Part shown: positions 1 through 64,000 of the stretch, one piece after another
Numbering within the stretch: position 1 is the first letter of the stretch
Layout of the letters: each line of letters opens with the position of its first letter
From: Escherichia phage teqhad
Strand: one strand, 5' to 3'
Sequence record: NC_054933.1
DNA: 64,000 bases
The notes under the pieces: generated by a model
Databases searched by the model: none
Seen by the model: the letters and a program-made list of their open reading frames with translations, nothing else
What the model was told of the DNA's origin: nothing
Translations under genes and position numbers: made by a program

Positions 1-110
1 TTAAGAACTAATACACTCATTCCACGTTCTTTATAATTATGTGCAGCAGTCAAAAGAGAAGCAGATTTTCCAGCATTCATTGCTGCATAAGTAAAAATTA
101 AACTCGCCAT
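1..110 (-). CDS. tk: thymidine kinase, N-terminal part only (gene runs off the window start)
   Basis: Minus-strand translation from ATG at 110..108 reads [36 protein letters not shown] with a P-loop GKS, as I recall the T4 Tk N-terminus. Confidence 0.85.
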
Positions 111-111
111 T

Positions 112-300
112 TTAGTCCTTAGTTAAATTTTCTAAATATGTTTCTAAATCATTTTCAGCTTTATCGATAGATTTTACTAATTCGTAATATGTTTCGGCAT
201 CTCCATAATCAGAAGATATTTCAAAAGACAAATCCTTTTCTAAACTAATAATTTCACCAACTAAAAATAATATTTCGTTCTTTTGTTCGCGAGTAATCAT
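112..300 (-). CDS. small acidic hypothetical protein (62 aa), paralog of the next ORF
   Basis: ORF track; shares EQK..LF and YxEL..ExxLxxYL segments with 297..482; stop/start overlap with neighbours. Confidence 0.45.
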
Positions 301-482
301 AAGGAATTTATATAATTAATAAGTTCTTGTTCTTTATTATCGAATTCTTTAGAAAGTTCTTCGTACTCGTTTGCACTAAAAGGACCGCATTCATTACAAA
401 CTTTTTCCAATTCACTATTTTTATCCATAACTTCGTGGATAAGAGAAAAGAGTTTGTCTTTTTGTTCTTTGCTTAGGCTCAT
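297..482 (-). CDS. small acidic hypothetical protein (61 aa) with a CxxC pair
   Basis: ORF track; tandem paralog of 112..300. Confidence 0.45.
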   Translation of the reverse strand: MSLSKEQKDKLFSLIHEVMDKNSELEKVCNECGPFSANEYEELSKEFDNKEQELINYINSL

Positions 483-483
483 A

Positions 484-652
484 TATTAATTTCCAGAAGT
501 TTTAAAATAATTCGCTTTTGCTTAAATATTTCCACAGTTAAATGATCAGTATCTTTTTGACCAATTCCAATGGCAAAACCTTTATTAACAGCGAGTTCAA
601 TTAAATTATCAAGTTCACGTAACACTTCATATTGTAACTCAGAACTATTCAT
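484..652 (-). CDS. small hypothetical protein (about 56 aa), below the ORF-track size cut-off
   Basis: Read by eye on the minus strand (MNSSELQYEVLRELDNLIEL...); its ATG overlaps the stop of 649..882 in an ATGA junction. Confidence 0.3.
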
Positions 653-882
653 TTTGGTTCACCTTGTTTTACAAAGTCTGGATACGGTTGAAACCCGGAA
701 TAGAAACCTTCACCGGTATGATTTGTACATCCTTTATTGGAGCAATAGCAATAGCACCAATAATCAAAATCACATATCATTTCATCGTTACATAAAGTAA
801 AAACAACAGGCCATTTACACTTTTCACAATGGGCATTTTTAAGAATACTAGTTTGGCTCATAACCATGTAACCTTTAAGCAA
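649..882 (-). CDS. small cysteine-rich hypothetical protein (77 aa), possible zinc binder
   Basis: ORF track; nine Cys including HCEKC and CYCYC. Confidence 0.45.
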   Translation of the reverse strand: MLKGYMVMSQTSILKNAHCEKCKWPVVFTLCNDEMICDFDYWCYCYCSNKGCTNHTGEGFYSGFQPYPDFVKQGEPK

Positions 883-1070
883 TATTCTTCTACATGTTGT
901 TTACGACCTTTCTTATCAATAAAGGTATATTCAACGAATGTTCCAATGTAGTCTTTATCTACATCATGTGGACTATTAATTGGACATTTAGTACGGCAAA
1001 TGCGTTCCCATTGACGAATAATTTCCACTTTGTTTTTAGGATCAAACGGATGTGGGTAATGTACTTTCAT
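858..1070 (-). CDS. small hypothetical protein (70 aa)
   Basis: ORF track; sits in the compact overlapping minus-strand gene run. Confidence 0.45.
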   Translation of the reverse strand: MKVHYPHPFDPKNKVEIIRQWERICRTKCPINSPHDVDKDYIGTFVEYTFIDKKGRKQHVEEYCLKVTWL

Positions 1071-1521
1071 AATCCACCACTATTAAATCAATATCAGGAG
1101 TAAACATGTCGATTAATTTAGAAACCTTATCCCAATCGCCGCCAGCAATACCACAACCTATGCGTGGAATGTAAATTACCGGTTTAAACAAAAGGGTTTC
1201 TGCCTGTAGATTTAATTCTATCATGCAGTTTACTAAAGCACCATAATCAAGATTAGGACCCGGTTCGTATTGCGTATACAAATTATAGCATATACTAAAT
1301 CCTGTGGGATTATGTTTAAAAACAATAGACATATCGCCTAATTTATCACGAGAACCGTACTCAGTAGTGGTTTTATCTATTTCTAAAATTTTGGGATAGG
1401 CTCTTGCTAATTGACCAGCTACACCTGAACCCATAGTATGAAAACAATTGCACCCGTGCGCAATAATATTACCTTGAAGAAATAGGGCGACAATATCGCC
1501 CTTGATATATTTTACAATCAT
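1042..1521 (-). CDS. macro-domain protein (putative ADP-ribose / O-acetyl-ADP-ribose hydrolase)
   Basis: 159 aa; GDIVALFLQGNIIAHGCNCFHTMGSGVAGQLARAYP and IPRIGCGIAGGDWDKV resemble macro-domain ligand-binding loops. Confidence 0.6.
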   Translation of the reverse strand: MIVKYIKGDIVALFLQGNIIAHGCNCFHTMGSGVAGQLARAYPKILEIDKTTTEYGSRDKLGDMSIVFKHNPTGFSICYNLYTQYEPGPNLDYGALVNCMIELNLQAETLLFKPVIYIPRIGCGIAGGDWDKVSKLIDMFTPDIDLIVVDYESTLPTSV

Positions 1522-1859
1522 CTAGTACTCAATCCTCGATTATAAGAATCTACCAAACGGTCAACCATTGAATGACAAGCGGCTTTATCTTTCTCCTCCG
1601 CAACTGAACATTCTAAGGTATTCCACTTTTTAGCATATCGTTTTAACAATGTATCATTTTTGTATCTGCTTGATTTATCTCTTTCTCCGTCTTTATATGC
1701 ATATATTAATTTCTGCGCAAATTCAGCTTGGCATGCTTTATTTTTCCCGCAATAATCCGCTGCAGTACGGTTTACATACTCTCTAATTTCAGTATATGAT
1801 GTATCTGCTAACGCAGAAAATGAAATTAATCCTATACATAAAACCAAAATTTTAGTCAT
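1518..1859 (-). CDS. secreted or periplasmic cysteine-containing small protein
   Basis: N-terminal signal-peptide-like MTKILVLCIGLISFSALA; 4 Cys; overlaps the SLT gene start. Confidence 0.55.
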   Translation of the reverse strand: MTKILVLCIGLISFSALADTSYTEIREYVNRTAADYCGKNKACQAEFAQKLIYAYKDGERDKSSRYKNDTLLKRYAKKWNTLECSVAEEKDKAACHSMVDRLVDSYNRGLSTR

Positions 1860-2397
1860 TTACTATTTCCAAAAGTTTATTATTTTTAAGGTAATTAGCC
1901 TTTTCTAGGACTTCAGAAGCATATTTAGAACCTGCTTTAACATTCCATCCCGAATTATAAGAGGATATTGCTTTTCTTATATCGCCCTTATGTATATTTA
2001 ACCAATAAGAAAGTTCAATGTACGCCCAGGAAGCTGAATTGGACCGTTTATTCAACATTCTTTTTATTTCAGCATCGGTCATATTATAACCAAGTTCCTT
2101 AACTCTTGCTCGCATAGTAGGCAAATAATTTTGGAACATTCCATAAGCGTGATGCTTTGGTTTAGATTTTAAATTAACTCCGCCAGAGCTTTCTTGCCAT
2201 AAAATAGCAGCCATTATATGACCCAATCCGCTCTTGTGGATATTTTTGTGTGTTTTATATTTTCCATCCTTAGAAAATTGTTCCCCGAATTGATACGCGT
2301 AACGCATGTTATCGAGTTGGACATTACTGAAAGTATGCTCGGAGCTATGTGCCATCATTGAAATGGCCAATAGACCAGCGAGTAGTGCTTTTCTCAT
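1852..2397 (-). CDS. secreted soluble lytic transglycosylase (SLT) family protein
   Basis: Signal peptide MRKALLAGLLAISMMAHS; catalytic-type ESSGG motif and AYGMFQ motif typical of family-1 lytic transglycosylases. Confidence 0.65.
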   Translation of the reverse strand: MRKALLAGLLAISMMAHSSEHTFSNVQLDNMRYAYQFGEQFSKDGKYKTHKNIHKSGLGHIMAAILWQESSGGVNLKSKPKHHAYGMFQNYLPTMRARVKELGYNMTDAEIKRMLNKRSNSASWAYIELSYWLNIHKGDIRKAISSYNSGWNVKAGSKYASEVLEKANYLKNNKLLEIVND

Positions 2398-2404
2398 GCT
2401 TACC

Positions 2405-2866
2405 TCATTGAGTTTTAATTACTGCTTTAGAAGCCTTTCCTGGTAAACGACGACTGTTGATAATTGCCATCCTGCATTGAAGTGACGGGTCTTTGAACTT
2501 CTCATTAGGCTTACAAACCGTAAATCCAAGCCAAAGATTTCCATCTGTGATTTCTAAACGTCCAGGACGATATTCAACCCCATCAATAAAATCCTCGTCA
2601 ATGTCAGGACGCGGAGGCATACTCAGGAATTCATTAACTTCTAAAACATGGTCTTTTATTTTATGGAATAATTCAAAAACATATGTCTCATCAATCTCCC
2701 GTTGAATTGCACGATCAAGAAGATGTTGAGAATATTTTAGATGAAACGATGAGACTCCTGCTGCTTTTGATGCCTCACGAATCTCATTGTTAATTTGACG
2801 AAACTCCGACTCAAAGTGACGACGAAGCTTATTTCGACGGATAAAAACTTCTGTATTGATAGTCAT
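2405..2866 (-). CDS. regB: RegB sequence-specific endoribonuclease
   Basis: 153 aa, begins MTINTEVFIRRNKLRRHFESEFRQ; matches T4 RegB as recalled. Confidence 0.9.
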   Translation of the reverse strand: MTINTEVFIRRNKLRRHFESEFRQINNEIREASKAAGVSSFHLKYSQHLLDRAIQREIDETYVFELFHKIKDHVLEVNEFLSMPPRPDIDEDFIDGVEYRPGRLEITDGNLWLGFTVCKPNEKFKDPSLQCRMAIINSRRLPGKASKAVIKTQ

Positions 2867-2925
2867 GTTGTTCTCCTCTTAACTGATAGAAAAATTATAC
2901 CACAGTCAAGAGGAAAAGTAAACAG

Positions 2926-3204
2926 TTATTCTTTAAATCTAATCAATTTATTCATAGACTTTGAAACTTCTGCACGAACCTCATGTAAGTTTTTAAGCTG
3001 TTCAAGACGCTGCTCATAGTAAGCAATTTCATCTTCTTCGAGACAGTCCTGTGAATCTTCTTTAAGATAGCGTGCATAGTCCTGGAAAGCTTTACGGACT
3101 ACTTCCTGGAAGTCATCAAGACTTTGAATTTTCTTAGGAGCGGCAGATACACGACGAGGGGCAGTATAATACTCATAACCAAACCCTGCACTTAATTGAG
3201 CCAT
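2926..3204 (-). CDS. hypothetical protein (start set at the internal [11 protein letters not shown]...)
   Basis: ORF track 2926..3246; the track start looks like a non-ATG extension. Confidence 0.4.
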
Positions 3205-3206
3205 TA

Positions 3207-3506
3207 TTATTTTTCCTCTGGTTGGAACACTGCACGACAAGCCCACATACTGGCTTCTTTGAGTTTCGTTTTAGCAATAGTTAACTGATCGAGGCTTTCG
3301 GCATAATTCTTCGCGAATTCACAATCTTCACAATTATCTAGTGCTTCCCAGAATTCATCATACAAAGCATCAAAGATAAGTCCTAAACGAACTTCAGCGT
3401 CTTTGATAGCATTCACTTTACCGATTTTCTCTTCAGTATGTGGTTTATAACCCTTAATATCTTCAATCATATTTGACTTCCTCACCAGTACATAAATCAT
3501 ATTCAA
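3207..3506 (-). CDS. hypothetical protein
   Basis: ORF track; CEDCEF motif; true start possibly the internal MIEDIKG. Confidence 0.4.
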
Positions 3507-3684
3507 CTAAACGAATAGGTTCATGAATGCCATATCCCTGAACAGAAATTTCTGTCGTAGGATAAATTCCACTAATATCACCCATATTCCACGCTTCATT
3601 AAATTGCTGTTCGCCTGAATTACTAAACCATTCTGCGAAAGCATTTAGCACATCTTTAGAACCTTCAATAATTATCTTTGCCAT
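3463..3684 (-). CDS. hypothetical protein (73 aa)
   Basis: ORF track; stop/start coupling with the GrcA-like gene. Confidence 0.45.
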   Translation of the reverse strand: MAKIIIEGSKDVLNAFAEWFSNSGEQQFNEAWNMGDISGIYPTTEISVQGYGIHEPIRLVEYDLCTGEEVKYD

Positions 3685-4046
3685 TACAAACTCTCGGTAA
3701 AGGTACGAGCGATAACGTCGCGCTGCTGTTCCGGAGTCAGAGAGTTAAAGCGAACTGCATAACCGGATACACGGATGGTCAGCTGCGGATATTTTTCCGG
3801 ATGCTTAACTGCATCTTCCAGAGTTTCACGACGCAGAACGTTAACGTTCAGGTGTTGACCACCTTCAATTTTAACTGTAGGCTGTGGCTCAATTTCAATT
3901 TCACGGGCATGCAAACCGTAGAAAATTTCTGGGTCTACAAAAGAGTCCTCTTTAAAGGTTTTAGAGACAATAATTCGTGCTTGAATACCATCTTCAAAAT
4001 AAATAGTACCTTTATGTGTGCCTTCAAGAATTTGATATGCTTTCAT
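3684..4046 (-). CDS. autonomous glycyl-radical cofactor (GrcA/YfiD-like; T4 Y06I-like)
   Basis: C-terminal 60 aa [60 protein letters not shown] is essentially identical to E. coli GrcA as recalled, including the radical Gly in RVSGYAVRF. Confidence 0.9.
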
Positions 4047-4053
4047 ATAAACC

Positions 4054-4380
4054 TCAATTAGAAAATAAATTTATCCAAGATTGTTCTTTAATTAAAAATG
4101 GCTCAGAATCATATGCCATTAAACTTTGGGTGATTAGTCCTTTAAAAGGTCCATCAATAAATTCCATGGTAAAATATGGAATTTTATTCATTAACTGTGC
4201 GTTAGGAGCAGTGCACAAAACTCTGCATCCTTTGAATACACCTTTTTGTAATTTGTATTGCTTGGGATAAAATTCGCTTAAAATGTTGTTATTTGCCAAA
4301 ATTTCAAAATGATTTACCAATTTATTTTTAATAGTTTTTGGCGAAAAATAGAGATATTCGAAAAGCTGTGTGTCTGTCAT
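4054..4380 (-). CDS. hypothetical protein (start set at MTDTQLFEY)
   Basis: ORF track 4054..4434; internal ATG overlaps the stop of the upstream gene (TAATG). Confidence 0.4.
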
Positions 4381-4967
4381 TATTGCATTCCGATTACGAA
4401 AAACTGTGGACGAGTAATACCACCAATGCAACATTTACTATTACAGCAGTAGTGTACAGTGTCAATATGGACGCTATAAATCTTATCCATATCAGGAGAT
4501 TTGACAGGCTCATCAATTATATACAAAATTCGCGAAAGCGATAAACCTCTGAACTTGCTTCCTTTATTACCAATAAAACTGCGTACAGAATCAGTAAATA
4601 AACGAAAACGTATATCATCATTAGAATAACGCGAAAATTCCTTTTTAATGTTATTTGCAGAAATTTTAGCGTAAGCTGAAGTATTAGAAAGAACAATAAC
4701 TGTTCCGCCATCATACAGCCAATTAGCAGCAAAGTTAGTCACAGCAATTGATTTACCAGATTGACGTCCACCATCTATACGAAGTGTGCAGTACTGTTTA
4801 AGTAATTCTTCAAATGGCGGGATATATTCGTTTTTACAAATTTCTTCTACTCTAGCATCAGAATGGTGTGTAAAAGCATTCATCAGGGATAGATAAGGAC
4901 CAGTTAAAAATGTTCTCATTTTATTCTCTCTAAATTTGGGCCATTCCATGGCGCATGAATTGTCCAT
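4380..4967 (-). CDS. hypothetical P-loop-like protein
   Basis: GGRQSGKS Walker-A-like motif and ILYIIDEP Walker-B-like motif; probable true start at MRTFLTG. Confidence 0.5.
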   Translation of the reverse strand: MDNSCAMEWPKFRENKMRTFLTGPYLSLMNAFTHHSDARVEEICKNEYIPPFEELLKQYCTLRIDGGRQSGKSIAVTNFAANWLYDGGTVIVLSNTSAYAKISANNIKKEFSRYSNDDIRFRLFTDSVRSFIGNKGSKFRGLSLSRILYIIDEPVKSPDMDKIYSVHIDTVHYCCNSKCCIGGITRPQFFVIGMQ

Positions 4968-62148: not shown

Positions 62149-64000
62149 CTACATTTTGAACTTTTTAGACATTCCGTTGATGTTAACCAAAGAAGCCAAG
62201 ATTTGAGAAACTTCGTTTTCCTCTTCTTTTGATTCTTCTACAAGGAATTGATTAAATCCAGCCATTGGACGAACTTCACCAGTTTCCATTAGATGGTCGC
62301 CATCATATACCGATTCCTCTAATTGTTCAGAAGGAGGAACGATTGTACCTTCTATTAGATACTTGTTATAAGCAGTTTCTTTCATAAAGTACGTGCTCAC
62401 TTTATTAATCTTCAGTAAAATTCCACGCGGTAGAATAACTTCAGCTTCTGATGGAAATCCTGATAAATGACCTGGAACGATAACTTTGATTCGCTCAGCT
62501 CCTTTAATTACCATACCCACGCTAGTTTCAGCATCTTCATTAGCATATGTAGAATGACTACCCATATGCATCAAATCTTCTGCATCAACGGAACCTTCTC
62601 CTTCGCCAGAAAATACTGCGCCGGAATCATCTAGAGCCATATAGTTTTTACCGTGCTCACCGAAAATATTTGGTTTAAGCGATGTGGATACGAAGTTCTT
62701 GAAATAGAACATTTTGTTTTCAATATTATGACGCAAAGTTTTAAAGGTAACTTCTTGTCCACGGTAAAGTGTAGTTCCTGGAGGAAGAACTGAACCTTTA
62801 GCGAATGCAGAATCAAGCGTCTCGATGTGTTTAATAGCTCGTTCCATATATTCTTCACGGGTAGAATCTGGTTTACCCAAAAGGAACGAGTTCATTTCAA
62901 CATATGAATCTGCACAATAATCTTCAATTACGTCAGATTCAGCCTGAGTTAATCCTTTTGGAGTTACTTCAGTACTTGCATATTCATATGCCTGAGCGGC
63001 AGATTCATTAATCAATTTATAAATGCCATTCATGACAAATTGAATAATAGCTGTCTTTTCATCTGGCGTAGCTTTAGAACCTTTAGCTAAATCATTGACA
63101 ATTTTCTTAATAACATCAAAACTATTAGAAATATTAATATCAGCAAGATCGCTTAAAATTTTATCAGTTTTATAATCAAAGAATTCTTTATTCTTTAAAT
63201 ATTCTTGAGAACCTTGATATGTTATATCGCTCTGCAGCTTGATAGATGGATCGCGTAAACGTGCATGGGCCAATGCAATATGATTTCGGAAGTTTTCTAG
63301 TTCATAATCGTTAGATTTAAAACGAGAAGCACTTCTCATACCACCGATAGCTCCTTTGCTAAAGTTTGAACCAATCTGAATAACGCCAGAGTTCATCGGA
63401 CCTTCTGCTTTATATACCGGAACTTTAGATTCAAACTCTTGATATTTCTTAGCAGCGAAGCTATCACCCTGAAGTGAAGCATCAACAGTAGAATATTGAG
63501 CTTGTGCTGCTAATCGACGACTAATTTTAGTTTTCTGAATAACAGCTTGATCCGTGCGCTTATCATTTTCTAAAGCAATAGAAGCAGCAACAGCGACAGC
63601 TTTAGGAACAGCATTACCTGTTTTAACGTCTACATAAACATCACCAACCTTTGATTCAACTTTTGTGAATAACTCAGTTGAAATAGGAGGTACACCTGGA
63701 ATGTCTTCTAAATTGGCATTTTTACGGTAAACCATAATATATGCATATTTCTTATCATAGTCCCAGATTTCCTTTAAAAGAACATATCGACCTGCTCCTT
63801 TAGTACGTACTAAACGGTCAGCAATAACTTGCATTTGACGAGCTGCGCCATTTGTTTTACTTTTTAGTACGCGGAATAGGCATGCGTCGATTTTATACTG
63901 TTTCATTGTTTGAAGAGCAGTATCAAAAACAGCATTAATGACGCCAATTGGATTTCCACCCAAGTTTCTAAGCTTGACTAACGATAATTTCTCGTTGACA
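62149..64000 (-). CDS. alt: Alt ADP-ribosyltransferase, C-terminal part (N-terminus lies beyond the window end)
   Basis: Over 600 aa in frame reaching the window edge; the track start is a non-ATG internal codon; position after gene 54 as in T4. Confidence 0.85.
   Translation of the reverse strand, partial: VNEKLSLVKLRNLGGNPIGVINAVFDTALQTMKQYKIDACLFRVLKSKTNGAARQMQVIADRLVRTKGAGRYVLLKEIWDYDKKYAYIMVYRKNANLEDIPGVPPISTELFTKVESKVGDVYVDVKTGNAVPKAVAVAASIALENDKRTDQAVIQKTKISRRLAAQAQYSTVDASLQGDSFAAKKYQEFESKVPVYKAEGPMNSGVIQIGSNFSKGAIGGMRSASRFKSNDYELENFRNHIALAHARLRDPSIKLQSDITYQGSQEYLKNKEFFDYKTDKILSDLADINISNSFDVIKKIVNDLAKGSKATPDEKTAIIQFVMNGIYKLINESAAQAYEYASTEVTPKGLTQAESDVIEDYCADSYVEMNSFLLGKPDSTREEYMERAIKHIETLDSAFAKGSVLPPGTTLYRGQEVTFKTLRHNIENKMFYFKNFVSTSLKPNIFGEHGKNYMALDDSGAVFSGEGEGSVDAEDLMHMGSHSTYANEDAETSVGMVIKGAERIKVIVPGHLSGFPSEAEVILPRGILLKINKVSTYFMKETAYNKYLIEGTIVPPSEQLEESVYDGDHLMETGEVRPMAGFNQFLVEESKEEENEVSQILASLVNINGMSKKFKM

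Follow-up and report, generated by a model that had tools for sequence, protein, structure and literature searches.

Tk.4 of Escherichia phage teqhad is a Gln-type macrodomain protein with a probable role in reversing DarT2 DNA ADP-ribosylation

Introduction

What would a stand-alone macrodomain protein do in the early region of a phage that also encodes an ADP-ribosyltransferase? The question is raised by a minus-strand gene at positions 1042–1521 of the 64,000-nucleotide stretch of Escherichia phage teqhad DNA analysed here (NC_054933.1; the window, below). A preliminary description had read its product as a macrodomain protein with glycine-rich loops, and had proposed two uses for such an eraser of ADP-ribose: tuning the phage's own ADP-ribosylation, or reversing host defence modifications such as those that DarT places on DNA. 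It had also taken the gene to be absent from T4 and possibly an accessory acquisition. Here we establish the identity of the gene and its counterpart in T4, locate its active-site positions by alignment to characterised macrodomains, and weigh the roles that it may have.

Results and discussion

Gene, fold and relatives

The tk.4 (adfM) coding sequence (1042..1521, minus strand) encodes a 159-residue stand-alone macrodomain protein and belongs to a compact series of genes on the minus strand. Its start codon overlaps the stop codon of vs in an ATGA tetranucleotide, read directly from the sequence (1518..1521, minus strand) and arranged identically in T4, and its 3' end overlaps the start of tk.3 by 29 nt. 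We infer from the ATGA overlap that translation of tk.4 is coupled to that of vs. Close to the start codon, codons 7–13 of tk.4 form a GC-rich hairpin in AT-rich surroundings (1482–1502, AAGGGCGA-TATTG-TCGCCCT), which T4 tk.4 has too, with one additional closing base pair. One possible explanation is mRNA folding that is conserved at this end of the gene; another is that the hairpin simply follows from the encoded KGDIVAL peptide, which is itself conserved.

Profile searches place the product in the macrodomain superfamily, as the preliminary description had proposed. Tk.4 scores 34.1 bits with the Pfam Macro profile (PF01661), whose gathering threshold is 22 (E 2.8e-8), the match taking in residues 22–136 of the protein and model positions 2–117 of 118, and PHROG 335, which is labelled 'phosphatase', matches with an E value of 2e-71. 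An AlphaFold2 model, computed from 51 homologs with the T4 sequence row left out, is confident (mean pLDDT 94.7, pTM 0.89) and has the macro fold: a Foldseek search of the PDB with this model found TARG1, Poa1p, BT1257, DarG and SCO6735 (E 1e-8 to 4e-10, TM scores of about 0.7–0.8), and among the 50 listed of its 174 matches (E ≤ 1e-3) each is either a macrodomain or a TTHA0132-like designed hydrolase. The closest profile relatives of the Tk.4 family are likewise BT1257 (E 3e-19), TARG1 (7e-17), Poa1p (8e-16), SCO6735 (1e-14) and DarG (2e-11). Relatives of teqhad Tk.4 were found by tblastn in 2,781 phage records, which puts the macrodomain match far beyond chance; they occur in phages of many genera, including those of Pseudomonas, Vibrio, Acinetobacter and Geobacillus, and several database records name tk.4 'macro domain protein'. 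Macro domains are present in 41% of myoviruses (PMC9503650). The stretch 1042–1521 of teqhad is therefore confirmed as a real macrodomain gene.

Orthology with T4 tk.4

The order tk.1, tk.2, tk.3, tk.4, vs, vs.1, regB is common to the teqhad window and T4, and over its first 4 kb the window shares 97.7% identity with genomes of Tequatrovirus, for example that of Shigella phage ESh18. Teqhad Tk.4 itself is 97–99% identical to Tk.4 of Shfl2, Sf21 and slur13, and 58% identical to T4 Tk.4 (NP_049723) over 155 residues (E 8e-71). The teqhad and T4 genes agree in slot (tk.3 / tk.4 / vs), strand, putative ATGA coupling and length class (159 against 155 residues), and all 14 family-invariant residues, including H22, N25 and Q84, are common to the two proteins. 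They differ in overall conservation, the 58% amino-acid identity of Tk.4 contrasting with 93–100% for the products of the neighbouring genes, and in the second glycine-rich loop, where teqhad GCGIAGGDW is the family consensus and T4 GAGIGKGNW deviates from it.

In T4 the gene (T4p110) is annotated as 'phosphatase; Tk.4; contains A1pp phosphatase motif', and an A1pp match in tk.4 orthologs was reported in 2006 by Nolan et al. (PMC1524935). The view that T4 lacks a macrodomain gene, and that the teqhad gene may be an accessory acquisition, is thus wrong: T4 has tk.4 at the identical slot, its A1pp match has been on record since 2006, and the family extends over thousands of phage records and its domain over two-fifths of myoviruses. 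The teqhad gene is an ortholog of the long-annotated T4 tk.4 (adfM), already known and not a new acquisition, and the labels 'phosphatase' and 'hypothetical protein' should give way to tk.4/adfM, macrodomain anti-DarTG2 factor.

The surrounding gene cluster shows several further features. Relative to T4, a 374-nt insertion (484–856) lies between tk.2 and tk.3 and brings two small minus-strand ORFs that are absent from T4, one of 57 residues (479–652, minus strand) with no Pfam hit and one of 77 residues (649–882, minus strand) that matches the phage zinc-binding domain PF23895 (E 1e-26). On the other side of tk.4, a minus-strand ORF at 3207–3506 matches T4 Vs.4 with 100% identity across 87 residues. 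We take Vs.4 to be the anti-CBASS sponge Acb2, in which case two counter-defence genes, tk.4/adfM and vs.4/acb2, would lie at most 2 kb apart in one early cluster. The minus-strand ORF at 3463–3684 (73 residues) matches T4 Vs.5 (58 residues) over 17 residues only, so that in teqhad the place of vs.5 is taken by a small gene that is mostly unlike it. A promoter and terminator scan of positions 1–4500 found promoter-like sites in no excess over shuffled sequences (16 found, 18.1 expected); upstream of the operon, its best match on the minus strand was at 2922–2894, before regB.

Published evidence for a role against DarTG2

The anti-DarTG2 role of this gene is already reported, by knockout and for the T4 allele only. 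In a preprint of November 2025 (10.1101/2025.11.20.689424), tk.4 was the single significant hit when a T4 transposon library was challenged on a DarTG2-expressing host, and a clean tk.4 knockout sensitised T4 to DarTG2; the gene was accordingly named adfM, anti-DarT factor Macrodomain. That T4 AdfM removes ADP-ribose from DNA is the inference of those authors, in whose words hydrolysis 'seems likely'. A further anti-DarTG2 factor was to be expected in T4, since the phage remains DarTG2-resistant without adfA and adfN (gene 30.3) (PMC11825919). Independently, gp104 of PhiKZ, a chimallivirus macrodomain, has also been named AdfM; it removes DarT2-installed ADP-ribose from thymidine in oligonucleotides in vitro, and it is less active when a conserved Asn of its catalytic site is changed (N23A) (PMC13309987). 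Of the two uses first proposed for the teqhad protein, reversal of DarT-type DNA ADP-ribosylation therefore pointed in the right direction, in agreement with the T4 genetics.

Active-site positions

The HGCNC motif of Tk.4 (residues 22–26; 1444..1458, minus strand) was placed by family alignments and by alignment to SCO6735 H24-V25-C26-N27, and puts N25 at the position of the ribose-contacting Asn (N27 in SCO6735, N22 in DarG). It is followed by the first glycine-rich loop, MGSGVAG (residues 30–36; 1414..1434, minus strand), whose aligned counterparts are MGKGIA in DarG and MGAGIA in TARG1, by the NLYTQ motif (residues 80–84; 1270..1284, minus strand), placed by hhalign of the family profile and by MAFFT alignments, and by the second glycine-rich loop, PRIGCGIAGGDW (residues 119–130; 1132..1167, minus strand), placed by phmmer and hhalign to TARG1, BT1257 and SCO6735. 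Residues H22, G23, N25, C26, N80 and Y82 are invariant among 51 family members; in the family alignment P119, G122, G124 and W130 of loop 2 are invariant and M30, G33 and A35 of loop 1 invariant or nearly so. The glycine-rich loops noticed at the outset are thus real, MGSGVAG and IGCGIAGG (residues 121–128) both falling in highly conserved family columns.

The position that sets Tk.4 apart from DarG and TARG1 is Q84, found in 51 of 51 family sequences and as Gln in T4 Tk.4 too. With the family profile aligned to M. tuberculosis DarG (PDB: 5M3I), TARG1 (2LGR), SCO6735, BT1257 and PhiKZ gp104, Q84 coincides with the catalytic lysines K80 (DarG) and K84 (TARG1), and with the essential Gln85 of SCO6735; BT1257, like SCO6735, has Gln at this position. 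A HMMER pairwise alignment to BT1257 set NLYTQ one gap off, and the profile-profile and MAFFT alignments were taken instead. In loop 2, A126 stands at the position of the TARG1 catalytic D125. SCO6735 frees DNA of thymidine-linked ADP-ribose and can rescue cells from the toxicity of DarT; the Q85A change abolishes its activity and N27S nearly does so, and the mechanism proposed for it is water-mediated, with Gln85 positioning the distal ribose (PMC9411070). Because the invariant Q84 matches SCO6735 Q85 and N25 matches N27, the description that best fits the Tk.4 lineage, on these alignments, is that of a Gln-type, ALC1/TARG1-like macrodomain.

Proposed mechanism and its alternatives

The reading that we favour, with a probability of roughly two in three, is that Tk.4 is a stand-alone early-region macrodomain acting as an orphan antitoxin, which would hydrolyse the thymidine-ADP-ribose marks of DarT2 by SCO6735-like chemistry. 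In such a scheme the host DarT2 toxin would ADP-ribosylate thymidines in single-stranded phage DNA, the modified base would be engaged through its ADP-ribose in the Tk.4 cleft formed by loop 1 (MGSGVAG), loop 2 (IGCGIAGG) and N25, and hydrolysis of the thymine-ribose bond would allow replication to proceed. Q84 would position the distal ribose for cleavage by a water molecule, much as has been proposed for SCO6735 Gln85, held by Asn27. As the catalytic lysine is replaced by the invariant Q84, the chemistry is probably unlike that of DarG and TARG1 and, by analogy, more likely SCO6735-like; Tk.4 would appear to work like DarG, but is not DarG.

Several observations speak against a hydrolase of this kind. 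Teqhad Tk.4 differs at 42% of its residues from the T4 allele that was tested, for which the genetics come from a preprint; it has neither the catalytic lysine seen in DarG and TARG1 nor the basic residues with which SCO6735 holds DNA; and its HxCNC motif is common to yeast Poa1p, an ADP-ribose-1''-phosphate phosphatase. The acidity of the protein was also considered as an objection to a DNA substrate and dropped: the pI of teqhad Tk.4 is 5.03 against 9.7 for SCO6735, but PhiKZ AdfM, which acts on DNA, is equally acidic (5.05), so that acidity is no argument here.

Tk.4 could protect without catalysis, by binding and inhibiting DarT2 directly or by shielding ADP-ribosylated sites, and two observations fit such a role: SCO6735 Q85A remains an inhibitor of DarT in vitro, and a stronger one than either DarG K80A or TARG1 K84A (PMC9411070), and the sharply bounded divergent cassette in tk.4, described below, could be a surface co-evolving with a variable toxin. 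We nevertheless consider it unlikely, as the substrate-binding and SCO6735-type catalytic positions are invariant in 51 diverse members, which argues for selection on catalysis, and Tk.4 is without the C-terminal DarT-binding domain of DarG. The resemblance to Poa1p raises instead the prospect of a small-molecule hydrolase that acts on ADP-ribose-1''-phosphate or O-acetyl-ADP-ribose and clears NAD-derived by-products or signals during infection. Beyond the shared HxCNC motif and N-terminal region (E 1e-9; Foldseek TMq 0.80 to 6lfr), this would accord with the 'phosphatase' annotation in T4 and in PHROG 335, and with the argument of Aravind and colleagues that soluble ADPr derivatives may be the preferred targets of many macro domains in phages (PMC9503650). 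It is improbable as the function of Tk.4, however, in that metabolite clearance leaves the DarTG2-specific phenotype of T4 tk.4 unexplained and that Tk.4 appears to have Ala126 in the place of F152, a Poa1p residue that was picked for mutation in the structural work. The two activities are not mutually exclusive, so that turnover of small molecules would more probably accompany the function than constitute it.

The other use first proposed, that Tk.4 erases the marks of the phage's own Alt, ModA and ModB and so tunes them, starts from a correct observation. The window does carry the alt ADP-ribosyltransferase gene (62149..64000, minus strand; PF03496 ADPrib_exo_Tox, 72.6 bits, E 3.5e-20), with its reading frame open to the window end and its 5' end cut by the window edge; ModA and ModB are encoded outside the window. 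The co-occurrence of a writer and an eraser is the sole argument for such tuning. The residue that Alt, ModA and ModB modify is arginine. For TARG1-like macrodomains the documented linkages are to Glu/Asp esters and to thymine or uracil, and not to arginine (PMC9411070; PMC13036486), and the marks of these enzymes would thus fall outside the documented substrates of the class to which Tk.4 appears to belong. The presence of macro domains in 41% of myoviruses and of Tk.4 relatives across many phage genera would also speak against a purpose tied to these transferases, and we regard the proposal as unsupported, chemically unlikely and highly improbable. Hydrolysis of DarT2 marks thus remains the reading that we prefer.

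A divergent allele cassette within tk.4

MAFFT alignment of the window to T4, followed in 100-column steps, gives 47–69% nucleotide identity over 1057..1438, inside flanks of 96–100%; identity is back at 89% in the stretch containing the first 80 nt of tk.4. The alignment thus delimits a cassette replacement, sharply bounded and with its breakpoints inside tk.4, and the flanking proteins retain 93–100% identity to those of T4. Phage records with at least 90% identity to the cassette number 290. For the adjacent vs-vs.1 DNA (1539–2400), 500 records reach at least 95%, and about 290 of these carry the cassette allele, so that the teqhad allele is the commoner and the T4 allele the rarer among sequenced relatives; the anti-DarTG2 test has therefore covered the minority allele, and the majority allele is of the teqhad type. 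Intermediate tk.4 alleles, with 75–82% identity, also occur (P0002, P0004 and P0007).

Such allele variability is typical of counter-defence genes. One may speculate that the cassette reflects an arms race in which different AdfM alleles would each suit particular variants of host DarT2, or other toxins that ADP-ribosylate bases, with Gln-type Tk.4 as a second, mechanistically distinct, water-mediated and lysine-independent phage solution, though we hold this as a doubtful proposal. By analogy with SCO6735, the substrate range of Tk.4 might be wider and take in uracil-ADPr on RNA and Glu/Asp-ADPr on protein.

Comparison with known macrodomains

SCO6735 of Streptomyces coelicolor (PDB: 5E3B) is an ALC1-like, Gln-dependent thymidine-ADP-ribose DNA hydrolase that is stand-alone like Tk.4. 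The two align with an hhalign probability of 98.6% and share the Gln at the catalytic-Lys position, the positioning Asn and the loop 2 pattern PRIGCGxAGGxW. They differ in that identity is about 27%, that SCO6735 K34 is S32 in Tk.4, and that the extended basic mobile loop of SCO6735 (K89, K93) is five residues shorter and acidic in Tk.4 (QYEPGPNLDY). SCO6735 Val25 is Gly in Tk.4, its role being proposed to run via the backbone.

Human TARG1/OARD1 (PDB: 4J5S) is the best structural match (Foldseek E 3.7e-10, TM up to 0.83; hhalign 98.5%), but both members of its K84/D125 catalytic dyad are replaced in Tk.4, by Q84 and A126. Poa1p (PDB: 6LFQ–6LFU) resembles Tk.4 in the N-terminal half, HGCNC aligning with Poa1p HSCNC (His23), and it is this resemblance that accounts for the historical 'A1pp phosphatase' label. 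The match splits in two because Poa1p carries an insertion between its N- and C-terminal halves. The Phe that corresponds to A126 of Tk.4, F152, was read from the F152A mutant chain and the PDB entry title.

With the DarG macrodomain (M. tuberculosis, 5M3I; T. aquaticus, 5M31) Tk.4 has fold and class in common (hhalign 97.7% to M. tuberculosis DarG), and DarG is its best hit in NCBIfam and PADLOC, a sub-threshold one that covers the macro part only (positions 2–142 of 338 and 3–144 of 329). Against the NCBIfam DarG equivalog NF048014 Tk.4 scores 28.7 bits, below the cut-off of 250; in the matches to the DarG models the 159-residue protein has no C-terminal DarT-binding domain, and no darT lies next to teqhad tk.4, whose neighbours are tk.3 and vs. 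A bacterial relative on the Pelagimonas phthalicica chromosome (P0091; L003 8001–8459), 40% identical and also stand-alone, sits among housekeeping genes, and DarT-like or ADP-ribosyltransferase neighbours were not found at this locus, which thus lends no support to a recent origin of the Tk.4 lineage from a DarTG operon.

PhiKZ gp104 AdfM aligns with the Tk.4 family at an hhalign probability of 96.5%. By analogy, Tk.4 probably shares the function of DarG and PhiKZ gp104, the reversal of DarT2 thymidine ADP-ribosylation, but not their active site: DarG and PhiKZ gp104 carry FPTK with the catalytic Lys, whereas the Tk.4 family carries LYTQ. Judged by these motifs, the name AdfM covers two macrodomain lineages, the Gln-type LYTQ lineage of T4 Tk.4 and the DarG-like, Lys-type FPTK lineage of PhiKZ gp104, a difference that may help those who work on DarTG counter-defence.
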